A DNA stretch of 64,000 nucleotides from Actinomycetota bacterium (GTDB lineage Bacteria > Actinomycetota > Acidimicrobiia > Acidimicrobiales > GCA-2861595). The stretch covers positions 442 to 64,441 of the forward strand of contig PJQG01000026.1 in NCBI GenBank assembly GCA_002861595.1, in the 5' to 3' direction. Under the pieces are notes generated by a model. It made no database searches. It saw nothing but the letters and a program-made list of their open reading frames with translations, and was not told where the DNA came from. Positions within the stretch are counted from its first letter, which is position 1; each line of letters starts with the position of its first letter. The position numbers and the translations under genes were made by a program. This document shows positions 6,235 through 25,219 of the stretch, piece after piece.

Positions 6235-6240
6235 GCCGGC

Positions 6241-6316
6241 GCCCCCGTATCCCAACTGGCCAGAGGACGGGAACTTAAAATTCTCGACAGTGTGGGTTCG
6301 ACTCCCACCGGGGGCA
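6241..6316 (+). tRNA. tRNA with anticodon UAA (nominally Leu) but class-I-like short variable region; no encoded CCA
   Basis: Hand fold: acceptor GCCCCCG/CGGGGGC (7 bp). D arm TCC-CAACTGGCCAGA-GGA. Anticodon stem GGGAA/TTCTC, loop CTTAAAA. Variable GACAGT. T arm GTGGG-TTCGACT-CCCAC. Discriminator A. Confidence 0.6.
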
Positions 6317-6321
6317 CGCCC

Positions 6322-6831: not shown

Positions 6832-6838
6832 CGTGTCC

Positions 6839-7519: not shown

Positions 7520-7664
7520 GAACCGATCGTTCCCCTGCTCCCATCAGGGCTGCGACCAAGGGGGAGGAGTAGCCTCTCCCGGTGCTTGCGCCATCTGCGT
7601 CGACGGGCGCGAAGCTGACGAGAAGAGAGGCCTCTTCAGGCCCAGACCTCGCCGAGGGGTGCGG

Positions 7665-9362: not shown

Positions 9363-10612
9363 GGGGGCGTCTGCGGCGTCAAGGGCCGGGCCTCGACCTT
9401 GGCCTGAACCCGCATGTCGACGAGCCCGACGCTGCGCGCCGGGTTCATCACCTCGAAGTGGTGCTGCTGCTCACTCCAGTCGTACACGATGCCCTCGTCG
9501 TGGCTGTGGACGCCAAAGGTGAGGAGGTAGGTGCCGTCAAGCAGCGGGACGGTGTCGGTCTCGAACACCACCTGGGCCCGCCCTTCCGCTGCGTTCACCG
9601 GCACGCCGAGCAGATCGGTGTTGGAACCGAAGATGAGCCGCCCTTCCAGGTCGTACACGGCGATGCCGAAGACCACGTCGTCGATCCGCTCCACCGCTTC
9701 GTAGCCCATCGTGATGCGGAGGGACTCGCCGGGGAGGAGGTACGGCCGTTCGTCCGACCCGGGGTGCTCGATGCGGACTTCGTCGATGCGGATCTTCAGG
9801 TTGCGTTTGGCCTGCGGGGAATCGGCGGCTGCGCCCGACTCGCCGCCGGCGAGGAACCGATCGGCTTCTCCCCGCCGGTCTCGTTCGAGGAGGTGCTCAC
9901 GAAAGGCACGGATGGCCTCGCCCGGTGGCCCGACCGCGACCAGCCGACCCTCGTCCAGCACCGCGGCGCGGTCGCAGATCCTGCGGACGAGGTCGCTGGC
10001 GTGTGACACGAGCACGATGGTGCGACCCTCGCGCTGGAACTGGCGGATGCGGTCGAGGCAGCGCCGCTGGAACGACTCGTCGCCCACGGACAGCACCTCG
10101 TCCACCAGCAGCACGTCGGGCTCCATGTTCACGGCGACCGCGAACCCGAGACGGGCGTACATCCCGGAGGAGTAGTGCTTGACCTGGTTGTCGATGAACT
10201 GCTCGAGCTCAGCGAAGGCGACGATCTCGTCGAAGCGCTTGGCCACCTCGCTGCGAGGCAGCCCGAGGAGCGACGCGTTGAGGAAGACGTTCTCCCGGCC
10301 GGTGAGGTCCGGGTGGAAACCCGAGCCCAGCTCCAGGAGAGCGGCCAGCCGGCCCTCGACGTGGATCTCCCCGGCGGTGGGCTCGAGGATCCCGGCGATG
10401 CAGTTCAACAGCGTGCTCTTGCCACAGCCGTTGTGTCCGATGAGCCCGATCGTCTCGCCTTGGGCGATCTCGAGGTCGACATCCCGGAGGGCCCAGAAGT
10501 CCTCGAAGGGCACTCGGCCCAGGCGCACAACGCGCTCCTTCACCGACGTCAGCGTCTCCCGGTACAAGCGGAAGCGCTTCGAGACGCCGGTCACCTCGAC
10601 GGCGGTGCCCAT
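9350..10612 (-). CDS. wzt: Polysaccharide ABC exporter ATP-binding protein (Wzt/TagH type) with C-terminal beta-sandwich extension
   Basis: Walker A GHNGCGKST, signature YSSGM, Walker B LLVDEVL. About 170 aa of extra C-terminus (Wzt_C-like). Start ATG complement of 10610-10612. Confidence 0.9.
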   Translation of the reverse strand: MGTAVEVTGVSKRFRLYRETLTSVKERVVRLGRVPFEDFWALRDVDLEIAQGETIGLIGHNGCGKSTLLNCIAGILEPTAGEIHVEGRLAALLELGSGFHPDLTGRENVFLNASLLGLPRSEVAKRFDEIVAFAELEQFIDNQVKHYSSGMYARLGFAVAVNMEPDVLLVDEVLSVGDESFQRRCLDRIRQFQREGRTIVLVSHASDLVRRICDRAAVLDEGRLVAVGPPGEAIRAFREHLLERDRRGEADRFLAGGESGAAADSPQAKRNLKIRIDEVRIEHPGSDERPYLLPGESLRITMGYEAVERIDDVVFGIAVYDLEGRLIFGSNTDLLGVPVNAAEGRAQVVFETDTVPLLDGTYLLTFGVHSHDEGIVYDWSEQQHHFEVMNPARSVGLVDMRVQAKVEARPLTPQTPPYRR

Positions 10613-10623
10613 GCTGCTCGGCG

Positions 10624-11505
10624 TCAGAGCTCTTCCGCGAAGTTGCCCTCGAGGCGGCCGAACAGCCGGAAGGCGAGGGAGAGCACCACCAGCGAGAAGG
10701 CAGCGACGGCGCCGAGTTGGCCCAGGTACCAGGCAACACCCTTGCCGGCGGGGAGGATGGCCAGGCCCGACGGTTCGATCCGGTTGTAGATGGCTCGCTG
10801 GAAGGTGAGCACGACAGGGGTGACGGGATTGAGGCGGTACACCCAGGACGCTTCTCCCAGTTGGTCTGCCACCAAGCGGTACTGGTAGACGATCGGCGTG
10901 GCCCAGAACCACGCGAGCAGTACCAGCTCGATCAGGTGCTCCGTGTCGCGGGCGTAGACGTTCACCGCCGAGAGGGCCACGGCGAGGGCGGAGGTGAAGA
11001 GCAGCAGGCTCACGAGCGCGACGGGGACCAGCAGCAGGAACGTCGGCGACGGCGGGTAGCGGAACAGGGCGAGGGCGCCCAGGAGCACCACGCTCTGGAG
11101 GAGGAAGTGGACGAACGCGGCGCCCACCGATGCCAGGGGCAGGACCTCGCGCGGGAACGACACCTTCTTCACGATGGCGGCGTTGCCGACGACCGCTCGC
11201 GTGGCGCCGGCCAGCGCCGTGGAGAACAGGTTCCAGACGAGCAGCCCGGAGAGCAGATAGATCGCGAAGTTCGGTATGCGGTTGCGCAGGACGACCTGGA
11301 AGGCGAAATAGAACACGACCAGGTACAGCGCCGGGTTCAGCATCGACCAGAGGAAGCCGACAGCGCTGCCCTTGTACTTGACCTTCAGCTCCTTGCGCAC
11401 CAGGCCCACCAGGAGCTCGCGGTACCGCCACAGTCCCGACATCCGGTCGAGAACTGACTTCTCCGTGGACCGACGCGGCCTGGGTGCGGTCTCGGTGCGG
11501 TTCAT
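10624..11505 (-). CDS. wzm: ABC-2 type polysaccharide exporter permease (Wzm/TagG type)
   Basis: 293 aa. RELLVGLVRKELKVKYKGSAVGFLWSMLNP is the ABC-2 signature region. Six hydrophobic helices. Sits 11 nt upstream of wzt. Confidence 0.9.
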   Translation of the reverse strand: MNRTETAPRPRRSTEKSVLDRMSGLWRYRELLVGLVRKELKVKYKGSAVGFLWSMLNPALYLVVFYFAFQVVLRNRIPNFAIYLLSGLLVWNLFSTALAGATRAVVGNAAIVKKVSFPREVLPLASVGAAFVHFLLQSVVLLGALALFRYPPSPTFLLLVPVALVSLLLFTSALAVALSAVNVYARDTEHLIELVLLAWFWATPIVYQYRLVADQLGEASWVYRLNPVTPVVLTFQRAIYNRIEPSGLAILPAGKGVAWYLGQLGAVAAFSLVVLSLAFRLFGRLEGNFAEEL

Positions 11506-11589
11506 CGTGGAGCGTCGACGACGACGCCCGCCAACGCGTGATGCACCGTCGTCGCACGGGGCCGTAGGGGCACCTCGTCGACTCTACTG

Positions 11590-12933
11590 GTGCCGTCGGC
11601 GCCGGCCGCGGCACCGCCCCAGGCCCACGACGCCCGGCGAGCGACCGGACACGCGTTCGCTATGCTCCTGCACAGTGCCGGAGGTCGCGAGCCCCGCCGA
11701 GGAAGGGCCCCGACCGATACCGGACCTGACGCTCCGGTTCCCGTCACACCGGCGGTGAGGCCGGGCGTCGTTCGGGGCAGGGGCGGCGCGCCGAGGGGGC
11801 GCCTGCTCGCGGGCCCTCGGCCCGTGGCGGCGCGAGCGGCCACAGTGGGAGCGGCTCTGGCCCTCCCCGTGCTGTGGGAGCTGTTCCGCATGGGCTACTA
11901 CGCCATGCTCGTTCACAACACCACGCTGGCCAAGGAGGCCGCGCTGGCTCGTTGGGACCAGGGGTGGCGCTATTTCGTCGACACGGTGGGCACGTACTAC
12001 CTGGCCGTCCCTCTCCTGGTGGTCGCGCTGTTCGTCGCGCCGCGGGTCGCAACGGCGTGGCGGGTGGGTCAGCGCACGGTGGCCGCCCTCGTCGCCGCCC
12101 CGATCGCCGTCGGCCTGGTGCAGTGGGTCTACGTGATACGAGTCGGCGGCGACTTCATGCACGGACGTGTCCTGCTCCCGGGCCTCTTCGCCATCCTCCT
12201 GCCCGCCGCCGCTCTCCGCGTCTCCCGGCGCCAACTCGTCGGCTTCGCCGCGCTGGGCGTGTGGGCGCTCCTCGTCGGCACGGTCGTCCGCGTGCCCTAC
12301 CGAGGGGACATCGGGCCCGCGGGCATCGCCGACGAACGCGGCGTGTACGCGGGATGGGCCCGACGTGCCCACCCCGTGGCTGCCGACGACTACGCGCGCT
12401 GGGTGTGGCTCCGCCGTGGCCGGGATCTGCGCCGCCTGGCGGCCCAAGGAAAGCCCGTCCTGATACTCGGAGAGCGGGGCTTCGCCGATGCCAAGCAGCG
12501 GCTGCCCCTGCGATCGAGTCAGGATCGGCCCGTGGCTGTCTTCACGTCTGTGGGCATGCTCTCGTTCGCGGCGGGCGTCGACGTCCACGTCGTCGATCAG
12601 CTGGCCTTGGGCGACGTCATCGCCTCTCATCAGCGCGTCGACGTGCGGGGCCGGCCCGGCCACGAGAAGCTGCTGCACCTGGCCTGGGCGGCGGCCCGGT
12701 TCGCCGACCCCTCGGCGCCTCCGCCGCCACTCGGGCCGACGACCGCGGAGACGGCGGCAGCCCGCCGGGCGCTTCGCTGCGAGCCCCTCGCCGAGCTGTT
12801 CGCCGCTACCCAGGACCGCCTGTCGACGAGGCGCTTCATGAAGAACATGGGCGCTGCCCTCCGCCTCCATCGCCTTCGGTTCTCACCCTCTCCCGTCGTC
12901 GCCGTGCAGGAGCTGTGCGGGGGGTCGGCCTGA
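11590..12933 (+). CDS. AftB-like (GT-C arabinofuranosyltransferase family) protein lacking the N-terminal catalytic-loop region; truncated gene or pseudogene
   Basis: LFRMGYYAMLVHNTTLAKEAA, VGGDFMHGRVLLP and GHEKLL match my recollection of the middle and C-terminal parts of mycobacterial AftB. No room upstream (wzm is on the other strand) for the first ~200 aa. A likelier start is GTG 11824. Confidence 0.5.
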   Translation: MPSAPAAAPPQAHDARRATGHAFAMLLHSAGGREPRRGRAPTDTGPDAPVPVTPAVRPGVVRGRGGAPRGRLLAGPRPVAARAATVGAALALPVLWELFRMGYYAMLVHNTTLAKEAALARWDQGWRYFVDTVGTYYLAVPLLVVALFVAPRVATAWRVGQRTVAALVAAPIAVGLVQWVYVIRVGGDFMHGRVLLPGLFAILLPAAALRVSRRQLVGFAALGVWALLVGTVVRVPYRGDIGPAGIADERGVYAGWARRAHPVAADDYARWVWLRRGRDLRRLAAQGKPVLILGERGFADAKQRLPLRSSQDRPVAVFTSVGMLSFAAGVDVHVVDQLALGDVIASHQRVDVRGRPGHEKLLHLAWAAARFADPSAPPPPLGPTTAETAAARRALRCEPLAELFAATQDRLSTRRFMKNMGAALRLHRLRFSPSPVVAVQELCGGSA

Positions 12934-13027
12934 CAGTGGTCCCGGCAGGGTTCCTTTCCTCGTAGAGTTCTCGGTCCGAGGCCGATCCCGGTCTCGTTGC
13001 TCGAAGCCGCAAGGAGGCAGGACGGAG

Positions 13028-14704
13028 GTGGTCGACGCCGACATCCGATCGCTCGAGGCCGGGACCTCCGAGGCTGCCCCGGGCCGCACGGCCTCCAGAA
13101 GAGGGGATCGAGCGGGCCCAGAGCCATTTCGAGCGCGGACGCCCGGCCCGCCTGTGCGTGCCCTCCAGTGGCTGGCGACCTTCGTCGGCCGCCGTTGGGG
13201 CGGCCTCACCGTCATCACCGCGTTCGCGCTCTCTCGCGTCGCCCTCGCGCACCTGGCCGATCTGCGCTTCGACAACATCCCCCTCAACGTCTCGCTTCAG
13301 CTCCTCGATCGCGGCCATCTGCGTGAAGACCTGGTGGGCAGCGTCATCCACCTCCACTCCCAGCCCCCGCTGTTCAACCTCTTGATCGGCTTGGGCCTCC
13401 GTGCGCCGTTGCACCTCGAAACGCCGCTGTTCCATGCGCTGTACCTCGCCGTCGGGCTGGGTACCACGGTGTGCCTCTACGCCCTGCTGCGGCGCGTCGG
13501 GGTACCGACCGTGGTCGCCGTGGTCGTCACCCTGGTCTTCACCTCGAGCCCGTCGTTCTTCCTCTACGAGACGTGGCTGCACTACGACCAACTCGTCATG
13601 TTCTTGTTGTGCCTCTCGGCGTTGGCGCTGCTGCGCTACGAGGAGAGCGGACGGGCTCGGCACGCCGCTGTGTTCCTGACCCTCGTGGCCGCGGTCGTGC
13701 TGACGAGGAGCCTCTTCCACCTGGTCTGGTTCATGGCGTGGCCCGTCGTGCTCCTGGCACGTCGCGGCGTCGACCGTCGCCGGCTGCTGTCGGCTATGGC
13801 GCTGCCCGTCGTCGTGGTGGTCGGCCTTCAAGTGCACCGCCTCGTCACCTTCGGCACACCCTCGTTGAGCAGCCTGGTCGGGATCAGCCTGGCCAAGATC
13901 ACAACGTTCCAGCTCTCGGAGAGCGAGCGTCGGGACCTCGTGGGTCGCGGCGAGATCTCGCCGGTCTCGCTGGTCGAGCCCCTCAGCCCGCCGGCCAGCT
14001 ACGAAGGCCTCGTCCCCACCCCACGTCCCACGGGTGTCCCCGCCCTCGATGAGGACCTGAAGGGGTTCTACCGGAGCCCGCTCACCGACGACTTCTTCCG
14101 GATGAACCTGAACAGCATGGTGTTCCTCGAGGTCTCCAACCAGTACCGAAACGACGCACTCCACGTCATCCGAACACGACCGGGTGCGTACGTCAAAGGC
14201 GTGGCCAGGGCCGTGGAGATATTCTTCCGACCGACGAGTGACGTGTTCGCTTTCGCCCAGAACCGTGACCGAGTCGGATCGCTCGACCGCTTCTACAACC
14301 GTGCCGTGTTCGGGGTGGCCGCACCGGGAAAGGCCGCAGAAGGCATTCCCCCGGCCCACCTCGGTTACATCGAGGGGCCGGCTCGGACTGCGTGGTTCGT
14401 CGTAGCCGCCTACGTGGCCGCCCTCGTGGGCGGCGCATTCACTCTTCTCCGGCGAGCCAGGCGACGAGACGAAGGCGGCGGGTCGCTCCTGACGATCGGC
14501 TTCTTGTGGCTGACGACGCTGTACGTCTTCGTGTTCAGCAACACCCTCGAGGTGGGAGAGAACAACCGCTTCCGGCTCTACTCAGACCCATTGGTGATCG
14601 CACTACTCGCCGCGCTCGTCGTGCGGTGGCACCGAGGCCGGGCGGAGCGCATCGACGCCAGGCCGCTCGATCGTCGTCGCCAGAGTCAGAAGTGGGTGCG
14701 GTAG
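13028..14704 (+). CDS. Paralog A of an unrecognised polytopic membrane protein family (GT-C-like)
   Basis: 558-aa ORF with an AAGGAGG SD upstream of GTG 13028 (alternative GTG 13154). Motifs [52 protein letters not shown] are shared with 17589.. and 19229.. Confidence 0.75.
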   Translation: MVDADIRSLEAGTSEAAPGRTASRRGDRAGPEPFRARTPGPPVRALQWLATFVGRRWGGLTVITAFALSRVALAHLADLRFDNIPLNVSLQLLDRGHLREDLVGSVIHLHSQPPLFNLLIGLGLRAPLHLETPLFHALYLAVGLGTTVCLYALLRRVGVPTVVAVVVTLVFTSSPSFFLYETWLHYDQLVMFLLCLSALALLRYEESGRARHAAVFLTLVAAVVLTRSLFHLVWFMAWPVVLLARRGVDRRRLLSAMALPVVVVVGLQVHRLVTFGTPSLSSLVGISLAKITTFQLSESERRDLVGRGEISPVSLVEPLSPPASYEGLVPTPRPTGVPALDEDLKGFYRSPLTDDFFRMNLNSMVFLEVSNQYRNDALHVIRTRPGAYVKGVARAVEIFFRPTSDVFAFAQNRDRVGSLDRFYNRAVFGVAAPGKAAEGIPPAHLGYIEGPARTAWFVVAAYVAALVGGAFTLLRRARRRDEGGGSLLTIGFLWLTTLYVFVFSNTLEVGENNRFRLYSDPLVIALLAALVVRWHRGRAERIDARPLDRRRQSQKWVR

Positions 14705-15597
14705 CGCTCGAAGGCGGCGACCGTCTGGGCCGGCAGGAAGCGGAACAGAGCATCGGGGTCACCGGCGACGGCCTCCACGATGGCCAGGTTGTGCTCGTAG
14801 CCCAGGTACTCCTTCTTCATGTCGACGACGAGGTCGTGGGGGTTGCGCTCCTGGACGACCGACGGCTTGGCGAACGCCACCTTCGCCCCCATCCCCTGGA
14901 GGTAATAAGCCGCCCAGATGTCGTCCATGCGGCCCACGTCGGGAAAGAGGAAGTAGTGCTGGAGCCAGGACGCGCCGAGGAAGGTGTTCTGGGAGTTGAA
15001 TGGGCTCATGGCGTCTGCGGCCATTGGAAAGAGCGATTCGTCGAAGGAGCAGTCGGGAGCGAACTGCATCCGGCAGATGGCGTCGATGTCGGGGTCACCG
15101 TTCCAGAAGTCGGCCTGGACGTCGGGACGAAGCACCTCGCGGCGCCTCGTCGAGTAGTCCCGCTGCGGGAGGAGCTGCAGCGGGTACCCCCGATGCCACA
15201 GGTGGGGATAGTTGGTGGCGCCGACGGGGTCGAAGGCCGGCAGTGACGTGGCGAAGAACTCCACCTCCACGTCCCTGCCAACCAACAGGTCGCGGCCCCA
15301 CCCCTCGTAGGGGACGTTGTCGTCGTCGACGACGGCCACCACCTCCGCGCCCATCTCGCGCGCCACGAGGAAGCCGAAGTTGCGCCGCTGTATGCAGTTC
15401 CAACCGATGAGGTCGGAAAGCGTCTTGTCGATCTTCTCCTGCTCGGCGGGGCCGAGGTACGTACCGCGTTCGAGGTGGTAGTCCTCGGGCGTCTTGAGGT
15501 CGCCCAGCACGACGAGGTGCCAGTCCGGCAGGGCGTCGAAGAGGCGAACCGCTTTGGTGGGGGGATTGATGGTGGTCGTGACGATGACGTTGGTCAC
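14686..15597 (-). CDS. RGP/GT75-like protein (homolog of plant reversibly glycosylated polypeptide / UDP-L-arabinopyranose mutase)
   Basis: 303 aa from GTG (complement 15595-15597). VVDDDNVP, LWHRGYPLQLL, GRMDDIWAAYY, NPHDLVVDMKKEYLGY parallel the RGP motifs IDDDCFV, FVRGYPFSLR, GRYDDMWAGW, NPFVNLKKEYKGI (recalled from memory). Confidence 0.65.
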   Translation of the reverse strand: MTNVIVTTTINPPTKAVRLFDALPDWHLVVLGDLKTPEDYHLERGTYLGPAEQEKIDKTLSDLIGWNCIQRRNFGFLVAREMGAEVVAVVDDDNVPYEGWGRDLLVGRDVEVEFFATSLPAFDPVGATNYPHLWHRGYPLQLLPQRDYSTRRREVLRPDVQADFWNGDPDIDAICRMQFAPDCSFDESLFPMAADAMSPFNSQNTFLGASWLQHYFLFPDVGRMDDIWAAYYLQGMGAKVAFAKPSVVQERNPHDLVVDMKKEYLGYEHNLAIVEAVAGDPDALFRFLPAQTVAAFERYRTHF

Positions 15598-16418
15598 GTG
15601 ATGGGAGCCGGGCTGGATTGGCGGAGGATGGTGGCCGCTCCCTGGACCCGGTGGGCCAAGAGCGTGCGGATGTAGCGAGCCTGGGTCGAGAGGGAGTTCT
15701 GCGACTCGCCCTCCTGCCGCGGCGTCCAGAACGTTGGGATCTCGATGACCTCGACCCCGAGGCGCAGCGGCTTGAGGACGGTCTCGAGCAGGAACTCGTG
15801 GCGGAGCCCCTCCCAGCGGATGGCCTGGACGAGCGGGGTGGGAAAGAGCCGGTACCCGAAGGTCGCGTCGGTGAGATGGGTGTTGTAGAGCAGCGAGGTG
15901 AGGCGCTGGAACACCCAGTTCGCGGCGACACGGGCCCGGCCGTAGCCGGAGAACCCGCCACCCGGTGCCCAGCGCGACGCGGTGATGACGGCAGCGGGGT
16001 GCTTCTTGGCGAGCTCGATGAACCGCGGCACGAGCTTCGGGTCCGTCTCCAGGTCGGTGGACATCATGATCACGTGGCTGGCGGTTGCGAGGTCGAACGC
16101 CTCCCGCATGGCGCCCCCGAGGAAAGGCAGGTGCTGGTTGTGGATGTGGACTCGGTCGCCGAACCGCGATTCGAGTGCCTCGCACCGCGCCAGCGTCTCG
16201 GGTGTGGTGCGGTCGCACACCACGACCAGGACCTGGGCGATGTCCTCGTCGCTCGTCTCCTTGAGGATGCGAGCGGTCTCGTCGACAGAGTCGGTCTCCG
16301 TAACGGCCGGGAGGAGGACAGTCACACCAGAGAACTCACGAGCGACCGGAGGCGACGTTGCGGGCACGACGGGTTCCTCTCTTTCTCGAAGGGACCGGCT
16401 GGCCCCAAGGGGGGCCAT
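15594..16418 (-). CDS. GT2, DPM1/Ppm1-like polyprenyl-phosphate sugar synthase
   Basis: MSTDLETDP, ASRWAPGGG...ANWVF, TDATFGYRLF, EIPTFWTPRQEGESQ fit the dolichol-P-mannose-synthase pattern. Its stop overlaps the downstream GTG (GTGA). Start uncertain (ATG 16418 or GTG 16367). Confidence 0.75.
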   Translation of the reverse strand: MAPLGASRSLREREEPVVPATSPPVAREFSGVTVLLPAVTETDSVDETARILKETSDEDIAQVLVVVCDRTTPETLARCEALESRFGDRVHIHNQHLPFLGGAMREAFDLATASHVIMMSTDLETDPKLVPRFIELAKKHPAAVITASRWAPGGGFSGYGRARVAANWVFQRLTSLLYNTHLTDATFGYRLFPTPLVQAIRWEGLRHEFLLETVLKPLRLGVEVIEIPTFWTPRQEGESQNSLSTQARYIRTLLAHRVQGAATILRQSSPAPIT

Positions 16419-16584
16419 GCCCGGCGACGGGTACCCTAGCGCCGGCTGTTCTCGCCGCCCACCACACTCCAGCACCACGAACCGCACGGCTGTGCTGTCC
16501 CCGCTCGCCGCGGGGCACGTGCTATCTTCACCGGCGCTGGAGAGGCGGGGTCGTCACGCAAGGGCGTGCACAGAAAGGAAATCA

Positions 16585-17571
16585 ATGAGCAACGACGCCG
16601 TGGTCGTGGGTGGGGCCGGTGGTTTCATCGGCGGTCACCTCGTCTCCAGCCTGCTGGAGGAAGGACGGGCCGTGAGGGCCGTCGATTACAAGCCGCTGTC
16701 GGCATGGTGCCAGCTCCACCCGGGTGCCGACAACCGCTCCCTCGACCTCCGCACGGCCGAAGCCTGTCGCAAGTCCGTCGACGGCGCCGCCGAGGTCTAC
16801 AACCTGGCCGCCGACATGGGCGGCATGGGTTTCATCGAGAGCAACAAGGCCTTGTGCATGCTCTCTGTCCTCATCAACACGCATCTGTTGATGGCGGCCC
16901 ACGAGAGCGGGGTCGAGCGCTACTTCTTCGCTTCCTCGGCCTGTGTCTACGCGTCGGACAAGCAGGTGTCGCCGGCGGTCACCGCCCTGAAGGAGGCCGA
17001 CGCCTACCCGGCGATGCCCGAGGACGGCTACGGCTGGGAGAAGCTGTTCGGCGAGCGGATGTGCCGGCACTTCCGAGAGGACTTCGGGCTGCAGACCCGC
17101 ACGGCGCGCTACCACAACGTCTACGGCGAGTACGGGACCTACGACGGCGGTCGCGAGAAGGCGCCGGCCGCCATCTGCCGGAAGGTGATCGAGGCCAAGC
17201 TGTCGGGCCGCCACGAGATCGAGGTGTGGGGCGACGGCGAGCAGACCCGAAGCTTCATGTACATCACTGACTGCGTGCGAGGCACAAAAGCCATCCTGGC
17301 CAGCGACATCCTCGATCCCATCAACCTCGGCAGCGCCCAGCTGGTCACCATCAACCAACTGATCGACATCGTCGAGGCGGTCGCGGGGATCAAGGTCCGT
17401 CGCAACTACAAGCTGGACGCGCCGCTGGGTGTGCGCGGCCGCAACAGCGACAACACCCTCATCCGAAGCCACCTGGGTTGGGAACCGTCGGTGACCCTCG
17501 AACAGGGAATCGAGAAGACCTACCGCTGGATCTACGACCAGATGACCAGGGTGGACGGCGCCAACAGCTGA
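16585..17571 (+). CDS. gme: GDP-mannose 3,5-epimerase homolog
   Basis: 328 aa with SD AAAGGAA. GGAGGFIGGHL, NLAADMGGMGFI, FFASSACVY, GREKAPAAICRK, WGDGEQTRSF, GVRGRNSDN closely follow plant GME as I remember it. Confidence 0.85.
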   Translation: MSNDAVVVGGAGGFIGGHLVSSLLEEGRAVRAVDYKPLSAWCQLHPGADNRSLDLRTAEACRKSVDGAAEVYNLAADMGGMGFIESNKALCMLSVLINTHLLMAAHESGVERYFFASSACVYASDKQVSPAVTALKEADAYPAMPEDGYGWEKLFGERMCRHFREDFGLQTRTARYHNVYGEYGTYDGGREKAPAAICRKVIEAKLSGRHEIEVWGDGEQTRSFMYITDCVRGTKAILASDILDPINLGSAQLVTINQLIDIVEAVAGIKVRRNYKLDAPLGVRGRNSDNTLIRSHLGWEPSVTLEQGIEKTYRWIYDQMTRVDGANS

Positions 17572-17588
17572 CTTCACGGCGCCGTCCG

Positions 17589-19232
17589 ATGCCGTTCCTC
17601 ATCAGATCGTCAACGGCCCTGCGCCGGCGGTGGGGTGCCCTCGCCGTCGTGACCGGGTTCGTGCTCTCCCGGATCGCCCTGGCCCACTTCGCTCACCTGC
17701 GTTTCGACAACAGCACCATCAACGCGGGCCTGCAGTTCCTCGATCGCGGCCACCTGCGTGAAGACCTGGTGGGCAGCCTCCTCCACCTCCACTCGCAGCC
17801 ACCGTTGTTCAACCTGTTCCTGGGCCTGGTCGTCCATGCGCCGCTGCACCTCGAGGCGCCGATCCTCCACGCCGTGTACCTGGCGGTCGGGCTAGGTCTC
17901 GCCCTCAGCCTCTACGCCATCCTTCGCCACGTCGGGGTGCCGACGGTGGTCGCCGTCGCGGTCGCCCTCGTCTTCACCTTCAGCCCGTCGGTGTTCCTCT
18001 ACGAGAGCTGGTTGCACTACGACTACCCCGTCACACTGGGCCTGTGCCTGGCCGTGTTGGCACTCCTGCGCTACGAAGAACGCCAACGGCCGAGGGACGG
18101 CGCGCTGTTCCTGGTGATGCTCGGCGCCGTCGTGCTCACCAGGAGCCTCTTCAGCGTCGCGTTGGTCCTCCTGTGGGCCATCGTGCTGGTCGCCCGCCGA
18201 GGCGGCGACCGGCGCAGGTTGGTCGGCGCGCTGGCGCTCCCCGTCATCGTGGTGGTCGCCGTGCAGGTGCACCGCCTCGTGGTCTTCGGGACGCCGACGC
18301 TGAGCAGCAGCCTCGGGGTCAGCCTGGCCAAGATGACGACGTTCCAGCTCTCCGAGGGCGAGCGCCAGGAGCTGGCCGCTCGGGGGGAGATCTCCCGCGT
18401 CTCGCTGGTCGAGCCCCTGAGCCCCGCGGACCGCTACCACGGCCTCATCCCCACCCCTCGTCGTACTGGTGTACGGGCCCTCGACGAGGAGGTGAAGGGC
18501 ATCTACCCGAGCCCGCCCACGGACAACGAGTACTTCCGCACCAACACGAACGCCACGATCTTCCAGGAGGTGTCCCGCCGCTACACCGCCGACGCCCTCC
18601 ACGTCATCCGAACCCGCCCCGGTGCCTACTTGCAGGGAGTGGCGACGGCCACCGAGATCTTCTTCCGCCCTACCGGCGACTTCTTCACCCTGGTCGGGAA
18701 CCGGGATCGGGTGGCGGCCCTCGACCGGTTCTACAACCGCGCAGTGTTCGGAGTCGTGGCGGGGGGCAAGGCACCGTCCGTCATCCCCGAGGCGCGGGTC
18801 CAGTACCGCCAGGGCCCGGCGCGCACGGCGTGGGTGGTCGTGGCCGCCTACGCGCTCGCCTTCGTCTGGGGCGCAGCCACGCTCCTGCGCCGAGCACGGC
18901 GACGGGAGCGGGATGGGGGTCCCGTTCTCACCATCGCCTTCCTCTGGCTGACCACCGTCTACGTCTTCGTCGTGAGCAACGCCGTCGAGGTGGGGGAGAA
19001 CAATCGCTTCCGGCTCTACTCCGACCCCCTCGTGATCGCGCTGCTCGCCACGCTGGTCGTGCAATGGCGGCGGAGCCGCTCCCCGCTGGCCCGTGCGCAA
19101 GCAGCTCGCCGAGCCTCGGCGAGCGCGTCGGTCACGACGGTCAGGACGGGCGGGGCGAGAGAATGCGTTCCCGACGCGGTGACGGTCGCGCCGCCCACTC
19201 CTGTCGGTGAGGGGTCTCGAGGAGGGCAGTGA
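17589..19232 (+). CDS. Paralog B of the unrecognised membrane protein family
   Basis: 547 aa from ATG 17589. Colinear with paralog A, with long identical runs ([77 protein letters not shown]). Confidence 0.8.
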   Translation: MPFLIRSSTALRRRWGALAVVTGFVLSRIALAHFAHLRFDNSTINAGLQFLDRGHLREDLVGSLLHLHSQPPLFNLFLGLVVHAPLHLEAPILHAVYLAVGLGLALSLYAILRHVGVPTVVAVAVALVFTFSPSVFLYESWLHYDYPVTLGLCLAVLALLRYEERQRPRDGALFLVMLGAVVLTRSLFSVALVLLWAIVLVARRGGDRRRLVGALALPVIVVVAVQVHRLVVFGTPTLSSSLGVSLAKMTTFQLSEGERQELAARGEISRVSLVEPLSPADRYHGLIPTPRRTGVRALDEEVKGIYPSPPTDNEYFRTNTNATIFQEVSRRYTADALHVIRTRPGAYLQGVATATEIFFRPTGDFFTLVGNRDRVAALDRFYNRAVFGVVAGGKAPSVIPEARVQYRQGPARTAWVVVAAYALAFVWGAATLLRRARRRERDGGPVLTIAFLWLTTVYVFVVSNAVEVGENNRFRLYSDPLVIALLATLVVQWRRSRSPLARAQAARRASASASVTTVRTGGARECVPDAVTVAPPTPVGEGSRGGQ

Positions 19233-20803
19233 CAGCCACGACGGCGGCGAGGCCCAGGGGCGAGGTCCACGGGGAGCCTGCCGACTGGTCGAGGCGCACG
19301 TCGGGGTGGCACCTCGGCGCGCTCGTCGTCGTCGTCGTCGCCTTCGTGGTCTCACGCATCGCCATCGCCCACAGCGGGGTGGTGTTCGACGACCGCACGC
19401 TGAACGACAGCCACCAGTTGCTGGAGCTGAGCGAGCTGCGGGACCACCCGCTGCGCAGCCTCGCCAACCTGCACTCCCAACCGCCGCTGTTCAACCTCTT
19501 CGTCGCCCTGGGCCTGCGGGCGCCGGAGTCCTGGCACAGGACGCTGTTCCACCTGAGCCAGCTCGCCATAGGTCTGGGGCTGATGCTGTGCCTCTACGCC
19601 GTGCTGAAGCGGCTCGGGGTGCGCAGCGCCATGGCCGTCGTACTCGTCGTGGTCTTCTCGCTGAGCCCGTCGGTGTTCCTCTACGAGAACTGGTTCCACT
19701 ACGACTACCCGATCGCGCTCATGCTGTGCCTCGCCGTGCTGGCGCTGCAACGGTACGAGACCGGCCATCGCCTGGGCCATGCGGCGATCTTCTTCGTCTT
19801 GCTCGGCACCATCGTGCTGACCAGGAGCATGTTCCACCTGTTCTGGATGGCCGCCTGGGTGGCCGTGCTCGTGTTCCACCGTCGCGGTGCCGACTGGAGG
19901 CGGGTGGCCGCCGTGGCGGCCGTACCGCTCGTCGCCGCGGTGGGCCTCCACCTCCAGCGCCTCGTCACCTTCGGCACCTTCTCCTCCACCTCCTCGCTCG
20001 GGATGAGCCTGGCCAAGCTGACCACCTTCCAGCTGACTGGACGTGAACGCCAGGAGCTGGTCGCGGAGCGGAAGCTCTCGAGGGTGGCCTTGATCGACCC
20101 GTTCTTCCCCGTTCGGGTCTACGCGCCAGTGGTCCCACCCCGGCCACCGACGGGGGTGCCGGTGCTCGACGACGCGGACAAGACGCTCGCCGACGGCAGC
20201 ACCCGCAACAACTACAACCACATCAACTACCTCGACATCGACGACCGCTACATGGACGACGTCAAGCGCACCATGAGGATGAGGCCTACGGCGTACGCGC
20301 GCGGTGTGGCGACCGCCTACGACATCTTCTTCCGGCCGCCCAGCGATTTCTTCGCCATCGGGCAGAACCGCGAACAGGTGGCCGGACTGGACCGCCTCTA
20401 CAACCACGCGTTCTATGGCCTGATCGGCGGCGCCGAGGACGTGGACGGTCATCCCGACAGCGCTCGCCAGTTCCGCCAGTCCCCGGGGCGCACGGCCTGG
20501 TTGAGCGTGGCGGCTTATGCCGTTGCCGTCGTCGGAGGCGCCGTCCACCTCTGGCGCCGACGCCGCCGTTCAGGCGACGAGCCTCAGTCCTGGCTGGTCC
20601 TGGCGTTCCTCTGGTCCACGGTGACCTACGTCATGGTCCTCGGCACCATGTTCGAGGTGGCCGAGAACAACCGCTTCCGGCTCTACTCCGACCCCCTCGT
20701 CCTCGCCCTCGTGGCCGCCCTGGTGGTCGCCTGGCGGCGTCAGCGGCCCACGACCAGGGTCCAGCCTGCCGGGTGGTCCCGGGCCCGAGGGCGGGACCGT
20801 TGA
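19229..20803 (+). CDS. Paralog C of the unrecognised membrane protein family (more divergent)
   Basis: 524 aa. GTGA overlap with the paralog B stop. Keeps [54 protein letters not shown]. Confidence 0.8.
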
Positions 20804-20844
20804 CAACTGGCCAGCTAGCGTTCGCTGACCGCGGAGGAGAACCA

Positions 20845-21852
20845 GTGCGCGCGCTAATCACCGGCATCTCCGGGCAGGACGGCTCCTACCTGGCCGAGTT
20901 GCTCCTGACCAAGGGCTACGACGTCCATGGGGTGGTGCGCCGCGCCTCGAGCTTCAACACCAGCCGCCTCGACCCGATCTACCAGGACCCCCACCAGGGC
21001 GGACAGCGGCTCTTCCTCCATTCCGGCGACCTCGCCGACGCCGTCGGGCTCGTGAACCTGGTCGCCGCCATCCGACCCGACGAGGTGTACCACCTCGGTG
21101 CGCAGAGCCACGTGCGCGTCTCGTTCGACCAGCCGGAGTACACCGCGGACATCACCGGCATGGGAACGCTCAGGCTGCTCGAGGCCATCCGCGCCGCTGG
21201 TGTCGAAACCCGGTTCTACCAGGCGTCGTCCTCGGAGATGTTCGGTGCCGCGCCGCCACCGCAGAACGAGCTGACGCCGTTCCACCCGCGCAGCCCGTAC
21301 GCCTGCGCCAAGGTCTTCGCCTTCCACCTGACCGTCAACTACCGAGAGGCGTACGGCCTCTTCGCCGCCAACGGGATCATGATGAACCACGAGAGCCCGC
21401 GCCGTGGCGAGATGTTCGTTACGAGGAAGATCAGCCGTGCCGTCGCCCGCATCGCCGCCGGGCTCCAGGACGAGGTCTACCTCGGCAACCTCGACGCCCG
21501 CCGCGACTGGGGCTACACGCCCGACTACGTGGACGCCATGTGGCGGGTGCTCCAGCACGAGGAGGCAGACGACTTCGTCATCGCCACCGGGGAGAGCCAC
21601 TCGGTGCGGGAGTTCTGTGAGGTCGCCTTCGCCCATGCCGATCTGGACTGGGAGCGCCACGTCCGTACCGACCCCAGCTACGATCGGCCCTCGGAGGTCC
21701 ATCATTTGCTCGGCAATGCTGCGAAGGCCAAGCGAGTCCTGGGGTGGACGCCGACAGTCCGTTTCGAGGAGCTGGTCCGGATCATGGTGGACGCGGACGT
21801 CGAAGCCCTCGAAGCCGAGATGTCCGGCAGGACAGCGAGGATCGAGAGATGA
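20845..21852 (+). CDS. gmd: GDP-mannose 4,6-dehydratase
   Basis: GTG 20845 after [54 protein letters not shown] are Gmd hallmarks. Confidence 0.95.
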
Positions 21853-22796
21853 ACATCAACAACGAGGTGGTCGTGGTCACGGGGGGCAGAGGATTCCTCG
21901 GCTGTCACGTGACCGAGGAGCTCCGGGGTGCGGGGGCGAAGGTCGTGCCTCTCGGCAGCGGCGATTACGACCTGCGCCGGCGGAGCGAGATCGACGCCAT
22001 GCTCGCAGATCACGATCCCGCCGTCGTGGTGCACCTGGCCGCCCTGGTGGGAGGCATCGGTGCCAACCGGGCCGAGCCGGGGCGGTTCTTCTACGACAAC
22101 GCCCTGATGGGCATCGAGCTGATCGAGGCGTGCCGGGTGGCCGGCGTCCGGAAGATGGTGATCGCGGGCACGGTGTGCTCCTATCCGAAGAACACCCCGA
22201 TCCCCTTCGACGAGGACGACCTGTGGAACGGCTACCCGGAGGAGACCAACGCGCCCTACGGCTTTGCCAAGAAGATGCTGCTTGCTCAGGCCCAGGCCTA
22301 CCGGCAGCAGTACGGCACGAACGCCATCTTCCTGCTCCCCGTGAACCTGTACGGGCCCGGCGACAACTTCGACCTCGAGAGCAGCCATGTGGTGGCGGGC
22401 ATGATCCGCAAGTTCGAGGACGCTCGGGTGAGCGGGGCCCCCGCTGTCACGCTCTGGGGGGACGGGAGCGCGACCCGGGAGTTCCTCTACGTCTCGGACG
22501 CGGCCCGGGCCTTCCGCTTGGCCCTCGAACGCTATGACGGCCCCGACCCGGTGAACGTCGGCTCCGGGGACGAGGTCACCATCCGAGACCTGGCCAAGCA
22601 CATCCAGCGGGCGACCGGCTACGTCGGTGAGATCGTGTGGGACACCTCCAAGCCGAACGGCCAGCCGAGGCGGAGGCTCTCCACCACCCGGGCCATGCGC
22701 TACTTCGGCTTCGAGGCGACGGTGCCGTTCGAGGAAGGGGTGGCGAGGACGGTGGAGTCGTTCCGGGCGACGCACCAGGAGGCGAGAGAGACCTGA
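21849..22796 (+). CDS. fcl: GDP-L-fucose synthase (GDP-4-keto-6-deoxymannose 3,5-epimerase/4-reductase)
   Basis: ATGA overlap with the gmd stop. [40 protein letters not shown] match the Fcl/WcaG pattern. Confidence 0.9.
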
Positions 22797-22916
22797 GGGA
22801 ACAGGCCATGGTTCCGGGGGCTACGCGATGCAAGGGCTGCCAAGAGACGCCCCCCCGGACGCCCTGATGCCCTTCGAGATCGACGAGAGGCTGCGCGAGG
22901 CACGGCTACCATCCCG

Positions 22917-24104
22917 TTGATGGAGGAGCGGTCGGACCTCGACGAGGTCATCGCTCAACTCAGGGCACGGGTCGAGGAACGCCGGCGCGCAGGCGATTAC
23001 CCGCCGGGGATGGAAGATGATCTGGACCGTCATTTCCGGCGCGTCGCAGCCCACCGGGCCCTTCCCGACCACCTGCCTCTCGAAGAGCGGTTGCGCCAAC
23101 TCTCCGGGGTCTCCTTGGACCGTGGTGCCATCAACGTCGACTCGGAGCTGCCCGGCGGCACGGCCCTCCACCGGCTCGTCGCCAAGGCGGTGGGCCGCCA
23201 GACCGAAGGGGTGCTGGACCAGGTCCGCCAGTTCGCCGATGCCGTCAGGTCGGCCTTCGAAGCCGTGCTGGCGGCCCTCGAGGACCCTTACGGCCACACC
23301 CATGGGGACCTGGTTGACCAGCTCGACGCCGTGCTCGAACGCCTGGCCGGTTTCGAGCGGGGTTCTGACGGCGGCTCGGCCATGGTCGGGGACCTGCGTC
23401 GCCGGGTGGAACGACTGGAGGCCGGGGAGCGGGCCCGGCGGGTGCAGCCCTGGTACACCAACGAACGCTTCGAGGCCGCGTTCCGGGGAAGCCGCGAGGA
23501 CCTCCACGAGCAGTACCGGGACCTGGCGACGCGCCTCGCCGACTCTGCGCCGGTTCTCGACATCGGGTGCGGCAGAGGCGAGTTCCTCGAGTTGCTGGCC
23601 GAGCTGGGGGTCGAGGCCTCCGGCGTGGAGCTCGATCCCGCCCTGGCCCAGGCCGCGGCACGCCGCGGCCTGAACGTGGAGGTGGGCGAAGGACTTCGTC
23701 ACCTGGGCGCGCTTGCTGATCGCTCACTCGGCGGCATCAGCATGATCCAGGTGGTGGAGCATCTGCCTCCTCAGGGCGTGCTGGACGTGGTCCCCCTTGC
23801 CGCCGAGAAGCTTCGACCCGGGGGCCTCCTGGTGATGGAGAGCGTCAACTGCCAATCCCTCTACGCCATGGCCCACCCGTTCTTCATCGACCCGACCCAC
23901 ATCCGCCCCGTCCATCCCGCGTACCTCGCCTTCCTGGCCCACGAGGCCGGCTTCGCCGAGGTGTCGATCGAGTGGCGCTCACCGCCTCCGAAGGAAGCGG
24001 TGCTCCTCGATGTCGGTGGGGACGGTCCCGAGGCCACCAACGTCCGGCGCCTGAACGAGGTGATCTTCGGCCCCCAGGACTACGCCGTCATCGCCTCTCG
24101 CTGA
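22917..24104 (+). CDS. Class I SAM-dependent methyltransferase with ~190-aa helical N-terminal extension
   Basis: VLDIGCGRGEFLELL (motif I), LRPGGLLVMES. The N-terminus is rich in charged heptad-like helices. Start TTG 22917 or ATG 22920. Confidence 0.8.
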   Translation: MMEERSDLDEVIAQLRARVEERRRAGDYPPGMEDDLDRHFRRVAAHRALPDHLPLEERLRQLSGVSLDRGAINVDSELPGGTALHRLVAKAVGRQTEGVLDQVRQFADAVRSAFEAVLAALEDPYGHTHGDLVDQLDAVLERLAGFERGSDGGSAMVGDLRRRVERLEAGERARRVQPWYTNERFEAAFRGSREDLHEQYRDLATRLADSAPVLDIGCGRGEFLELLAELGVEASGVELDPALAQAAARRGLNVEVGEGLRHLGALADRSLGGISMIQVVEHLPPQGVLDVVPLAAEKLRPGGLLVMESVNCQSLYAMAHPFFIDPTHIRPVHPAYLAFLAHEAGFAEVSIEWRSPPPKEAVLLDVGGDGPEATNVRRLNEVIFGPQDYAVIASR

Positions 24105-25219
24105 GGGCGTCGAGCGAGGTGATCGGCAGCGGCGGCGAGGGCATAGGCGGCCAGGACGCCCCACAAGGGGAACCACGCCTTCCAGTAGTGGATGTTGCCG
24201 AACAGCAGGTGGGCGCCACTGCCGCCGGGGTAGCTCAGGTAGATGGCGGACCCCAGCACTGACACGGCGAAGGCGGCGCCGAGGGGAAGGGCCAGGCGGT
24301 GGCGCCGGCGGACGAGAACGGCCACGCCCACCGGCGCCAGGGCTGCCCACGGGAACTGACGCCCGATCGGGTCGACCTCGGCGCGAACCGTTCCGGTCCT
24401 TCCGGTCACGAACACCTCGAGGAAGTTGCGCGGTGCCCGCTGCGGCTCGAAGTTCGACAGGCTCTGCTGGTTGCTGCCCTCTCCCTGGCGGCCTTCCTGC
24501 TGGCTGTAGGGCGTCTTCAGCGGGCTGCCGAGCACGGCGGCGTGGGTGGCCAGCACAGGGATGGCGACCAGGACGGCGCCGGCCGCGGCGGCGACCAGAA
24601 CGCGCGAGCGCCCACGTCCCCCGACAGTGCCGCGGACCAGCGCCAGGGCGCCGATCAGAGCGGGGAAGAGGGCGTCGAGATACCGGGCCGCGAACGCCAT
24701 GCCGGTGGCCAAGCCGATGATCAGGCCGCCCCGCCACGTCACCTGGCCCGGCGACGTGGCGACCACCAGCGCGGCCAGCACCGCCACCACGGTCACCGTT
24801 GTGTTCCACGGTACGACCATGGTGTCGAGCAGCGGCGTGGCGAGGGCCACTGCGGCGGCACACGCCAGGCCGAAGCCGGAGGAGCGAAGGCGACGGCCGA
24901 GGACGGCCACCATGGCCATGGCCGCGGCAAAGGCGATCGCGTCGGGGATGGCGAAGGCGTCGCCCCCGGGCCGCAGCTTCAGGAACGGTACGGCCAGCGC
25001 GGGGTAGCCAAGCCCGTAGATGTAGCTCGAGGGCGGGGAGGGCAGGTTCGCCCGGGCAAGATCGCGGGCCAGGTCGAGGTAGTGGCTCTGGTCGAAGAAG
25101 CCGTACCACCCCGGCGGGTTCAGCACCCCTGGCCGTGCGGGGTGGATGGCCAGCGCGTAGGCGAACAGGCCGACGGCGGCGATGGCGACACCGCCCACGA
25201 GCGTCGTTCCGGGCGGCAT
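24080..25219 (-). CDS. Polytopic membrane protein, GT-C/ArnT-like
   Basis: 379 aa, ~10 hydrophobic helices. First-loop FFDQSHYLDLARDLA resembles the ArnT-type D-E-x-x-Y-x-x-x-A-x-x-M motif. Confidence 0.6.
   Translation of the reverse strand: MPPGTTLVGGVAIAAVGLFAYALAIHPARPGVLNPPGWYGFFDQSHYLDLARDLARANLPSPPSSYIYGLGYPALAVPFLKLRPGGDAFAIPDAIAFAAAMAMVAVLGRRLRSSGFGLACAAAVALATPLLDTMVVPWNTTVTVVAVLAALVVATSPGQVTWRGGLIIGLATGMAFAARYLDALFPALIGALALVRGTVGGRGRSRVLVAAAAGAVLVAIPVLATHAAVLGSPLKTPYSQQEGRQGEGSNQQSLSNFEPQRAPRNFLEVFVTGRTGTVRAEVDPIGRQFPWAALAPVGVAVLVRRRHRLALPLGAAFAVSVLGSAIYLSYPGGSGAHLLFGNIHYWKAWFPLWGVLAAYALAAAADHLARRPQREAMTA

Follow-up and report, generated by a model that had tools for sequence, protein, structure and literature searches.

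Three genes between positions 13,028 and 20,803 of a 64,000-nucleotide stretch of Actinomycetota DNA (contig PJQG01000026.1 of assembly GCA_002861595.1; hereafter the window, at its full length) encode paralogous polytopic membrane proteins, which we call A, B, and C and which, judging from structure modeling, are enzymes of the glycosyltransferase GT-C fold belonging to a family that no database has curated. They very probably act as GT-C transferases that use a lipid-phosphate-linked sugar. Between A and B lies a donor module of three genes encoding a GDP-mannose 3,5-epimerase (GME), a GT75-like candidate mutase, and a soluble glycosyltransferase of family GT2, and we lean, by a little, toward this module as the source of the donor used by A, B, and C. 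The coupling of an uncurated GT-C family to an undescribed donor module is what we rate as new here.

An earlier note, made by reading this DNA by eye, had described A, B, and C as colinear paralogous open reading frames (ORFs). All three are present on the + strand (Table 1) and can be aligned end to end. In a MAFFT alignment (mean column identity 69%), B is 66% and C 49% identical to A over the full length, which bears out the closer relationship of A and B and the greater divergence of C. The motifs quoted by the note, namely [12 protein letters not shown](F/V)FLYE(T/S/N)W(L/F)HYD, VLTRS(L/M)F, SLAK(I/M/L)TTFQL, IFFRP, and [13 protein letters not shown](I/L)AL, recur in all three proteins of the same alignment. 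At the DNA level, A and B are 75% identical over 1449 nt and B and C 65% over 1453 nt, levels that exclude chance likeness. The G + C content of the window is about 70%, and that at third codon positions (GC3) is 0.85-0.92 in the three ORFs. Because of these GC3 values and the existence of homologs, we regard A, B, and C as real genes; chance similarity and spurious high-GC ORFs were ruled out on the same grounds.

The start codons of A and B are less certain. The recorded gene calls for the contig are 13154-14704 for A, giving 516 aa as against 558 aa from the GTG at 13028, and 17649-19232 for B, whose longest ORF begins at 17478. A start at 17649 would cut the first transmembrane helix (TM1) of B, removing most of that helix, and the ATG at 17589, which lies 17 nt past the GME stop codon, fits the family alignment better. 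From the sequence, 13028 and 13154 stand as alternatives for A, and 17589 is favored among those for B. As noted earlier, B and C overlap by GTGA (19229-19232), and A is parted from B by the GT75-like (then called "RGP-like"), GT2, and GME genes. A (+) and the GT75-like gene (-) converge and share 19 bp at their 3' ends (14686-14704), and the start of the GT75-like gene overlaps the GT2 stop codon by 4 bp. The 4-bp overlaps of B/C and of the GT2/GT75-like pair suggest translational coupling.

The earlier note could not assign the proteins to a named family, and database searches led to the same result. The sole recurrent Pfam match in the family is PMT_2 (PF13231; gathering cut-off 26.1 bits), which scored 20.6, 27.2, and 22.8 bits with A, B, and C, respectively; only B lies above the cut-off. 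Among 59 family members, 19 matched PMT_2 at E < 0.01 and 40 did not, and stray matches were to other GT-C-type families such as GT87 and PMT, the latter in one member (E = 0.003). Neither a MIR domain nor a PMT (PF02366) signature was found by Pfam in A, B, or C at E <= 1, and an identity as MIR-containing protein O-mannosyltransferases (PMTs) was rejected for lack of that domain. NCBIfam returned only noise for the three proteins (CbiQ, 16 bits; LA_3751/2, 18 bits against a cut-off of 200), and a PDB sequence search with a profile of the three paralogs gave only chance matches (E > 0.4). No strong match to a non-glycosyltransferase family was obtained from Pfam, NCBIfam, or the PDB sequences. 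When the family was compared by hhalign with the two bona fide PMT_2 proteins of the window, the probability was 52-54%, and SQPPLFNL of the family was placed against GSPPLYYVL of a true PMT_2 protein, in agreement with the likeness of H-x-x-PPL to GT-C motifs that had been proposed by eye.

Structure modeling supported the earlier proposal that these are GT-C-type enzymes. An AlphaFold2 (AF2) model of B built from a 59-sequence alignment was of high confidence (predicted local distance difference test (pLDDT), 92.3; predicted TM-score (pTM), 0.90), and 18 of the top 20 matches in a Foldseek search of the PDB were GT-C enzymes, including AglB, PglB, ArnT, Pmt1/2/4, STT3, EmbA/B/C, ALG9, and ALG3, with PimE lower. 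The TM-scores were 0.23-0.41, no match reached E <= 1e-3 (best 6e-3), and the match probability was mostly 0.8-1.0. The matches thus indicate a GT-C fold, but the family lies far from all solved structures. Wzx, MATE, GtrA, Wzy, WaaL, and SEDS proteins were not among the top fold matches of the model in the PDB, and an identity as a polymerase of the Wzy/WaaL/SEDS kind was rejected for this reason.

According to hydropathy and the AF2 model, B consists of TM1, a loop of about 50 residues with short helices, TM2-7, a mostly helical domain of about 180 residues, and TM8-10. The layout is therefore seven TM helices, the domain, and three terminal TM helices, where the earlier note had counted two. 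We predicted topology from the positive-inside rule over 84 family sequences. The density of Lys and Arg was 0.19-0.32 per residue in the predicted cytoplasmic loops, 0.002 in the second outer loop (EL2), 0.069 in EL1, and 0.14-0.15 in EL3 and EL5, the charges of these last two loops being the conserved Arg residues. This distribution puts the N-terminus inside and all conserved motifs on the outer face, including the acidic F-D motif just after TM1. The note had read the motif in this loop as F-D-(N/D); the F-D part holds, but the N/D part is not conserved across the family.

Conservation was calculated from the set of loci found with a sequence pattern, and residues are numbered as in B. In EL1, F39 is 97% conserved, D40 is Asp in 86% (Glu in a further 4%), D52 is Asp in 80% (Glu in a further 12%), and H68, Q70, P71, P72, and N75 are each 100% conserved. 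Further conserved residues are P133 (100%), E139 (97%), G243 (100%), K303 (85%), N319 (100%), P344 (100%), E470 (95%), N471 (96%), R473 (98%), and R475 (94%); EL1 carries H-S-Q-P-P-L and the last outer loop E-N-N-R-F-R. Since HxQPPLFN was itself the pattern used to find the loci, its value of 100% is in part artefactual, although Q70, P71, P72, and N75 were still invariant in an independently gathered protein set. A, B, and C retain all of these residues, C with Glu at position 52, and all three thus look catalytically competent.

In general, GT-C enzymes have 7-13 TM helices with a conserved N-terminal TM1-7 module, and those of the GT-C_A class have, besides this module, two juxtamembrane (JM) helices and a catalytic Asp after TM1 at the tip of JM1 (PMC11127046, PMC12041299). 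B has ten TM helices by model and hydropathy and a long EL1 (residues 35-85), in which DSSP assigns short helices to 43-46, 53-58/60-65, and 72-82 of the model. Because D40 precedes helix 43-46 and D52 precedes helix 53-58, both fit the position of the GT-C_A catalytic Asp. D52, E139, E470, R473, and R475 are candidate active-site residues equal to or stronger than those named earlier. C diverges most from A and B in the outer domain (44-46% identity as against 59% in TM8-10), making this domain a likely determinant of acceptor or linkage.

The family is large, with at least 2,281 clusters at 50% identity. A profile search of 1.84 billion representatives clustered at 50% identity found 3,602 proteins at E <= 1e-10, of which 2,281 reached E <= 1e-30, and a pattern scan of GTDB species genomes found 377 relatives. 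The best 80 of these 377 all come from uncultured organisms (79 are titled metagenome-assembled genome (MAG)) and include Actinomycetota, Zixibacteria, Desulfomonilaceae, Ignavibacteriales, Anaerolineales, Planctomycetota, Omnitrophota, and others. A second profile search, on a set of 5.8 billion proteins, added almost no new members, informative names, or cultured organisms; as far as seen, the family is confined to uncultured organisms. Apart from one chimeric partial record, the matches are named "hypothetical protein" or "glycosyltransferase family 39 protein" in their sources, and a literature search found no paper describing the family. One relative (34% identity; locus L027, 10001-11332) lies on a contig binned as Candidatus Altiarchaeota and is either a real archaeal member or a binning artefact. 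In a neighbor-joining tree, A and B are sisters in one clade, C falls in a second, and a third clade adjoins genes for GDP-mannose 4,6-dehydratase (Gmd). Since A and B are recent sisters and C belongs to an older, separate subfamily, the three genes go back to one old and one recent duplication and not to a single triplication, as the earlier note had it. Related MAGs carry up to five copies, and many genomes have a single copy per locus.

We examined the module between A and B by homology. The epimerase matched Arabidopsis GME (PDB 2c59) over its full length (phmmer, E = 1e-88, 300 bits), and by this similarity it is a true GDP-mannose 3,5-epimerase. The GT75-like protein matched MtdL (phmmer, E = 3e-17) with conservation of the DDD motif, S228, and R257, and MtdL was also the top Foldseek match of its AF2 model (E 1.6e-18, TM 0.74-0.78), followed by rice UAM2, with generic GT-A proteins far behind. 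MtdL is a Mn-dependent GDP-l-galactopyranose mutase of family GT75; MtdL and Hyg20 interconvert the pyranose (p) and furanose (f) forms of GDP-l-galactose (GDP-l-Galp/Galf) and GDP-l-fucose (GDP-l-Fucp/Fucf), and GT75 proteins also autoglycosylate (PMC9937993). At E <= 1, Pfam RGP gave no match to the protein of the window, but three close homologs are recorded with PF03214. For the GT2, the best NCBIfam matches were AglJ, a dolichyl-phosphate (Dol-P)-hexose transferase, and PgfS, hexose synthases of the Dol-P or undecaprenyl-phosphate (Und-P) kind that all scored below cut-off, and it matched Dol-P-mannose (Dol-P-Man) synthase in the PDB (5mlz) with E = 8e-9. Homologs of the GT75-like protein number 5,391 at E < 1e-5; among the 120 best listed, which span phyla, identity is 63-82%. 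A GT2-GT75-like-short-chain dehydrogenase/reductase (SDR) operon is kept in a Deltaproteobacteria MAG and two contigs (among loci L079-L082), and the GT2 and GT75-like proteins stay paired across phyla, at 42-54% and 66% identity. The GT2 ortholog of L082 forms a fusion with an LPG_synthase_TM domain of the MprF type. The hidden Markov model (HMM) of the A/B/C family did not match the polytopic neighbors of this operon in L079-L082, which belong to other membrane families. The 4-bp overlap and the pairing across phyla argue that the GT2 and GT75-like enzymes act in sequence, and the pair is consistent with a general module producing a lipid-linked sugar for use by various transferases at the outer face.

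The module is linked to the family in relatives as well. Homologs of both the GT2 and GME (64-80% identity) lie within 10 kb of the family member in eight of the 19 closest loci, and seven of these eight also hold the GT75-like gene. Three more of the 19 hold the GT75-like/GT2 pair with a different SDR; the GT2 homolog, at the same identities, is near the family in 11 of the 19. These neighbors are more conserved than the GT-C proteins themselves (46-60% identical). In five of six A/B-type loci, the A/B-type copy lies between GME and the GT75-like/GT2 pair, and in the sixth (L001) only GME and GT2 were detected. Adjacent locus tags in the NCBI records agree with this linkage. C-type copies are often found close to Wzt and Wzm or between the two (L013, L084), or as part of a tandem series of GT-Cs (L083). 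At the last locus (2039-13235), from an Acidimicrobiales MAG, six GT-C genes stand in a row beside a LytR-CpsA-Psr (LCP; LytR_cpsA_psr) ligase gene: four PMT_2-type paralogs and two members of the A/B/C family. Largely extracytoplasmic, GT-C-rich glycan assembly seems typical of this lineage.

The explanation that we consider best combines these observations, and as a whole we hold it to be evenly poised between right and wrong. GME would convert GDP-mannose to GDP-l-Galp, and the GT75-like mutase would convert this to GDP-l-Galf or, equally, would turn GDP-l-Fucp supplied by Gmd and the GDP-l-fucose-synthase-like (Fcl-like) enzyme of the cluster into its furanose. The Dol-P-Man-synthase-like GT2 would load the sugar onto polyprenyl phosphate to give polyprenyl-P-l-galactofuranose or a close relative, and some flippase would carry the lipid-linked donor across the membrane. 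At the outer face, A, B, and C would transfer the sugar onto a cell-envelope glycan exported by Wzm/Wzt, with Asp40 or Asp52 as base or nucleophile and H68, K303, R473, and R475 holding the phosphate, and a methyltransferase might cap the exported glycan for recognition by the Wzt_C domain. That the donor is l-Galf is a tentative assignment within this scheme and somewhat less likely than not. The outer domain is where the paralogs have diverged most, which makes a difference in acceptor or linkage most likely, by analogy with the Emb and Aft enzymes, which use decaprenyl-P-arabinofuranose. The idea in the earlier note, one donor serving the three copies for three different linkages, is plausible in the case of A and B and doubtful in that of C; A/B-type copies are tightly linked to the module and C-type copies often are not, and C may thus use another donor or acceptor. 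In its most specific form, the proposal is that the family consists of polyprenyl-phospho-l-galactofuranosyl (or l-fucofuranosyl) transferases with which uncultured Actinomycetota/Acidimicrobiia build a wall glycan containing l-hexofuranose, along an arabinan-like and largely extracytoplasmic route with multiple GT-Cs; as a complete statement, we regard this as rather unlikely.

Several observations speak against this explanation. A and C score under the PMT_2 cut-off, and no flippase of the GtrA, MATE, or Wzx type is recognizable by Pfam among the cluster genes. The GT75-like family has an invariant Gln in place of the Mn-binding His287 of MtdL, and its identity to MtdL in the structural alignment is only about 24%; for these reasons, we infer rather than read off its mutase activity and substrate. 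In the GT2/GT75-like operon of other phyla, the SDR is not GME and the neighbors are different polytopic proteins. C-type copies are linked to the module less regularly and mostly do not lie next to it, and the family has no conserved partner in 58 distant-phylum loci (commonest neighbors: methyltransferases, 7; GT4, 6; UDP-glucose dehydrogenase, 6; GtrB-like GT2, 4), which makes the linkage specific to the Actinomycetota clade. In addition, D40/D52, E139, H68, E470, and R473 are candidates picked by conservation and not by clustering in three dimensions, and the source organism, whose acceptor glycan is presumed from its genes, is uncultured.

Some of these points would be accommodated if A, B, and C were GT-C transferases with a donor other than the module furanose, such as polyprenyl-P-l-galactopyranose, polyprenyl-P-mannose, or another lipid-linked sugar, the GT75-like enzyme then feeding a cytoplasmic Leloir glycosyltransferase or glycosylating itself. 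The usual absence of the module beside C-type and distant members, the Gln in place of His287, the autoglycosylation of GT75 proteins (PMC9937993), and the capacity of the cluster to make GDP-l-fucose as well are consistent with such a donor. However, the 4-bp overlap and cross-phylum pairing of the GT2 and GT75-like genes argue for sequential action, and the embedding of the A/B-type copy in the full module in five of six loci also speaks for the furanose, so that we consider a different donor unlikely. Less probable still is that the three proteins are ordinary PMT/ArnT-like enzymes, that is, protein O-mannosyltransferases or lipid or protein modifiers, with a protein acceptor. PMT_2 is their sole Pfam match, B and a few relatives are labeled "glycosyltransferase family 39" at NCBI, Pmt1/2/4 are among the fold matches of the B model, and the order of seven TM helices, outer domain, and further TM helices recalls the PMTs, in which a MIR domain lies between TM7 and TM8, as in the Pmt1-Pmt2 structures. 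Nevertheless, the scores are at or under the PMT_2 cut-off, neither MIR nor PMT is detected at E <= 1, and the model shows helices, not a beta-trefoil, in the inserted domain. The cluster already contains two much better PMT_2 proteins, and the genes are linked to Wzm/Wzt and the GDP-l-galactose module rather than to ppm1.

Assembly into a hetero-oligomer of the Pmt1-Pmt2 or EmbA-EmbB kind, in which a B-C or A-B-C complex forms one linkage and one subunit may be non-catalytic, would account for the apparent translational coupling of B and C through GTGA and for the tandem or clustered family copies in other loci (L003, L005, L009, L083); heterodimeric GT-Cs are known, and PDB entries 6p25 and 7bvc are among the fold matches. 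We consider this quite improbable, as every candidate catalytic residue is kept in A, B, and C, subfamily pairing and order are not conserved between genomes, and many genomes have one copy per locus. It is very improbable that the proteins, rather than being transferases, flip or carry the lipid-linked sugar or act as a Wzy/WaaL-like polymerase or ligase. The cluster has no recognizable flippase and the family lies directly beside donor-making genes, both of which would suit a carrier, but 18 of the 20 top fold matches are GT-C enzymes with no Wzx, MATE, GtrA, Wzy, WaaL, or SEDS protein, and conserved acidic and basic residues with a 180-aa domain on the outer face are typical of a catalytic site and not of a flippase.

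Among known systems, A, B, and C most closely resemble the PMT_2/GT39-GT83 group (ArnT and the PMTs), with which they share the polytopic GT-C fold and an acidic residue after TM1 followed by (H/S)-x-PPL where the PMT_2 region begins; ArnT and Pmt1/2/4 are among their best fold matches, and the PMTs likewise have a soluble outer domain inserted after TM7. They differ from this group in distance (hhalign about 53%, TM-scores 0.25-0.39, HMM scores of 20.6-27.2 bits against 26.1) and in having their own invariant motifs (QPPLFN, N319, and ENNRFR), and they fail the hallmarks of GT39: no MIR, no PMT signature, and two of three under the PMT_2 cut-off. Mycobacterial arabinan synthesis by EmbA/B/C and AftA-D is alike in logic, with several GT-Cs, paralogous or clustered, using a lipid-phosphate furanose donor outside the membrane to build or decorate a wall glycan, and l-Galf is the hexose homomorph of d-arabinofuranose. 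An AftB_C-like gene in the cluster, an LCP ligase beside relatives, and EmbA/B/C among the fold matches add to this likeness. In contrast, A, B, and C do not detectably resemble the catalytic modules of Emb or Aft in sequence, the arabinan donor comes from phosphoribosyl pyrophosphate (PRPP) via UbiA and DprE1/E2 whereas here it would come from GDP-mannose via GME, the GT75 mutase, and the GT2, and the backbone here is apparently exported by Wzm/Wzt.

In three-component systems (GtrA/GtrB/Gtr*; C. youngae ORF15/14/12, GT136), a polyprenyl-P-sugar synthase and a GT-C modify an exported glycan, including glycans exported by ABC transporters (PMC11127046). The window is similar in encoding a candidate polyprenyl-P-sugar synthase, the GT2, with the GT-Cs. 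It differs in having no recognized flippase gene, three paralogous GT-Cs of another family in place of one, and, in the donor route, a nucleoside diphosphate (NDP)-sugar epimerase and a GT75 mutase, which are undescribed for such systems in the literature that we found. The GT75-like protein shares with MtdL and Hyg20 the fold, the DDD motif, S228, R257, and pairing with a GDP-l-galactose-forming enzyme, but is shorter (303 aa as against about 375), has Gln for His287, and occurs in cell-envelope glycan loci and not in antibiotic pathways. To our knowledge, only two bacterial GT75 enzymes have been characterized, both from antibiotic pathways. A literature search found no paper tying GT75 or l-Galf to GT-C enzymes or polyprenyl donors.

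The three genes and the module are part of a glycan cluster spanning about 7.6 kb to 29.06 kb of the window (Table 1), which may reach further upstream to a GT2, a polytopic protein, and an SDR. Wzm and Wzt, presumed to export the acceptor glycan, also flank family members in L013 and L084. The AftB_C-like protein matches only positions 214-622 of the 633-position AftB model and lacks the N-terminal region of about 200 aa of AftB that contains the catalytic Asp, D62 (AftB structure paper). Its homologs were found in none of 77 related loci, and it may be a remnant or else a partner with an accessory or acceptor-binding role. The methyltransferase is possibly the source of a chain-terminating cap recognized by Wzt_C, and the two polytopic proteins that match no family could be further GT-C-like enzymes or the flippase. 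The oxidoreductase, with weak similarity to UDP-galactopyranose mutase, recurs beside family members and the donor module of related MAGs (L013, L015, L016, L084) and might modify a nucleotide- or lipid-linked sugar. A promoter and terminator scan of 11400-24300 gave no promoter and one terminator-like site against 3.7 expected, and an Rfam search of 1-30000 found nothing but one tRNA gene (6241-6316, +; 43.5 bits). This tRNA gene, a short way before the first GT-C gene, may mark a boundary of the cluster. An ORF at 3009-4298 (-; 429 aa), rich in Gly, Ala, Arg, His, and Asp and without a TM helix or family match, looks like a spurious antisense ORF in high-GC DNA.

Table 1. Features of the glycan cluster and its surroundings, in window coordinates
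Feature	Position	Strand	Evidence
Polytopic protein, 448 aa, about 9 TM helices, HPPG motif, no family match	1058-2404	+	No match at the thresholds applied
Separate bona fide PMT_2-type GT-C, 565 aa	7665-9362	+	PMT_2 45.8 bits; hhalign to family, probability 52%
Wzt (ABC ATPase and Wzt_C glycan-binding domain)	9350-10612	-	Pfam
Wzm (ABC-2 permease)	10624-11505	-	Pfam
AftB_C-like membrane protein	11824-12933	+	NF041481 138 bits; PF26371 AftB_C
Paralog A, GT-C-like polytopic protein	13028-14704	+	ORF, alignment, PMT_2 20.6 bits, sister of B in tree
GT75-like (RGP/MtdL-like) candidate GDP-l-hexopyranose mutase, 303 aa	14686-15597	-	phmmer, AF2/Foldseek to MtdL
Soluble GT2, candidate polyprenyl-phosphate hexose synthase, 257 aa, no TM helix	15594-16367	-	Pfam GT2
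GME, forming GDP-l-galactose	16585-17571	+	phmmer to Arabidopsis GME 2c59
Paralog B, GT-C-like polytopic protein, 547 aa from ATG 17589	17589-19232	+	ORF, alignment, PMT_2 27.2 bits, AF2 model
Layout of B	17589-19232	+	EL1 with D40/D52 and [11 protein letters not shown]2-7, about 180-aa helical outer domain, TM8-10
Paralog C, GT-C-like polytopic protein, 524 aa, older subfamily	19229-20803	+	ORF, alignment, tree
Gmd	20845-21852	+	Pfam GDP_Man_Dehyd 458 bits
Fcl-like SDR	21849-22796	+	Pfam Epimerase 198 bits
S-adenosylmethionine (SAM) methyltransferase	22920-24104	+	Pfam Methyltransf_23 and others
Polytopic protein, 379 aa, about 7 TM helices, no family match	24080-25219	-	No match at the thresholds applied
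PRK07208-type flavin adenine dinucleotide (FAD) oxidoreductase	25270-26808	-	816 bits, NCBIfam model named "hypothetical protein"
Second PMT_2-type GT-C with DUF7846; last cluster gene	26964-29060	+	Pfam; next gene Ppx-GppA

GT-C enzymes build envelope polymers such as mycobacterial arabinan, and the Emb enzymes among them are the target of ethambutol. Many GT-C families remain unannotated, and such a family is in itself not rare. The present one matters because it is large, occurs in many phyla, and is covered by no Pfam, NCBIfam, or PDB entry. Its linkage to the module gives a testable hypothesis for an undescribed donor class, the lipid-linked l-hexofuranoses, and hints at a role for the very widespread bacterial GT75-like proteins. 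If the proposed route is true, it would provide the first lipid-linked l-hexofuranose donor and the first role of a metal-dependent GT75 mutase in primary cell-envelope assembly, and the GT2/GT75-like pair, highly conserved across many phyla, would constitute a donor module of a general "hexofuranose three-component" type on which different GT-C families draw. Confirmation would establish a new GT family in CAZy and carry the three-component paradigm, so far one of pentofuranoses and hexopyranoses, over to hexofuranoses.

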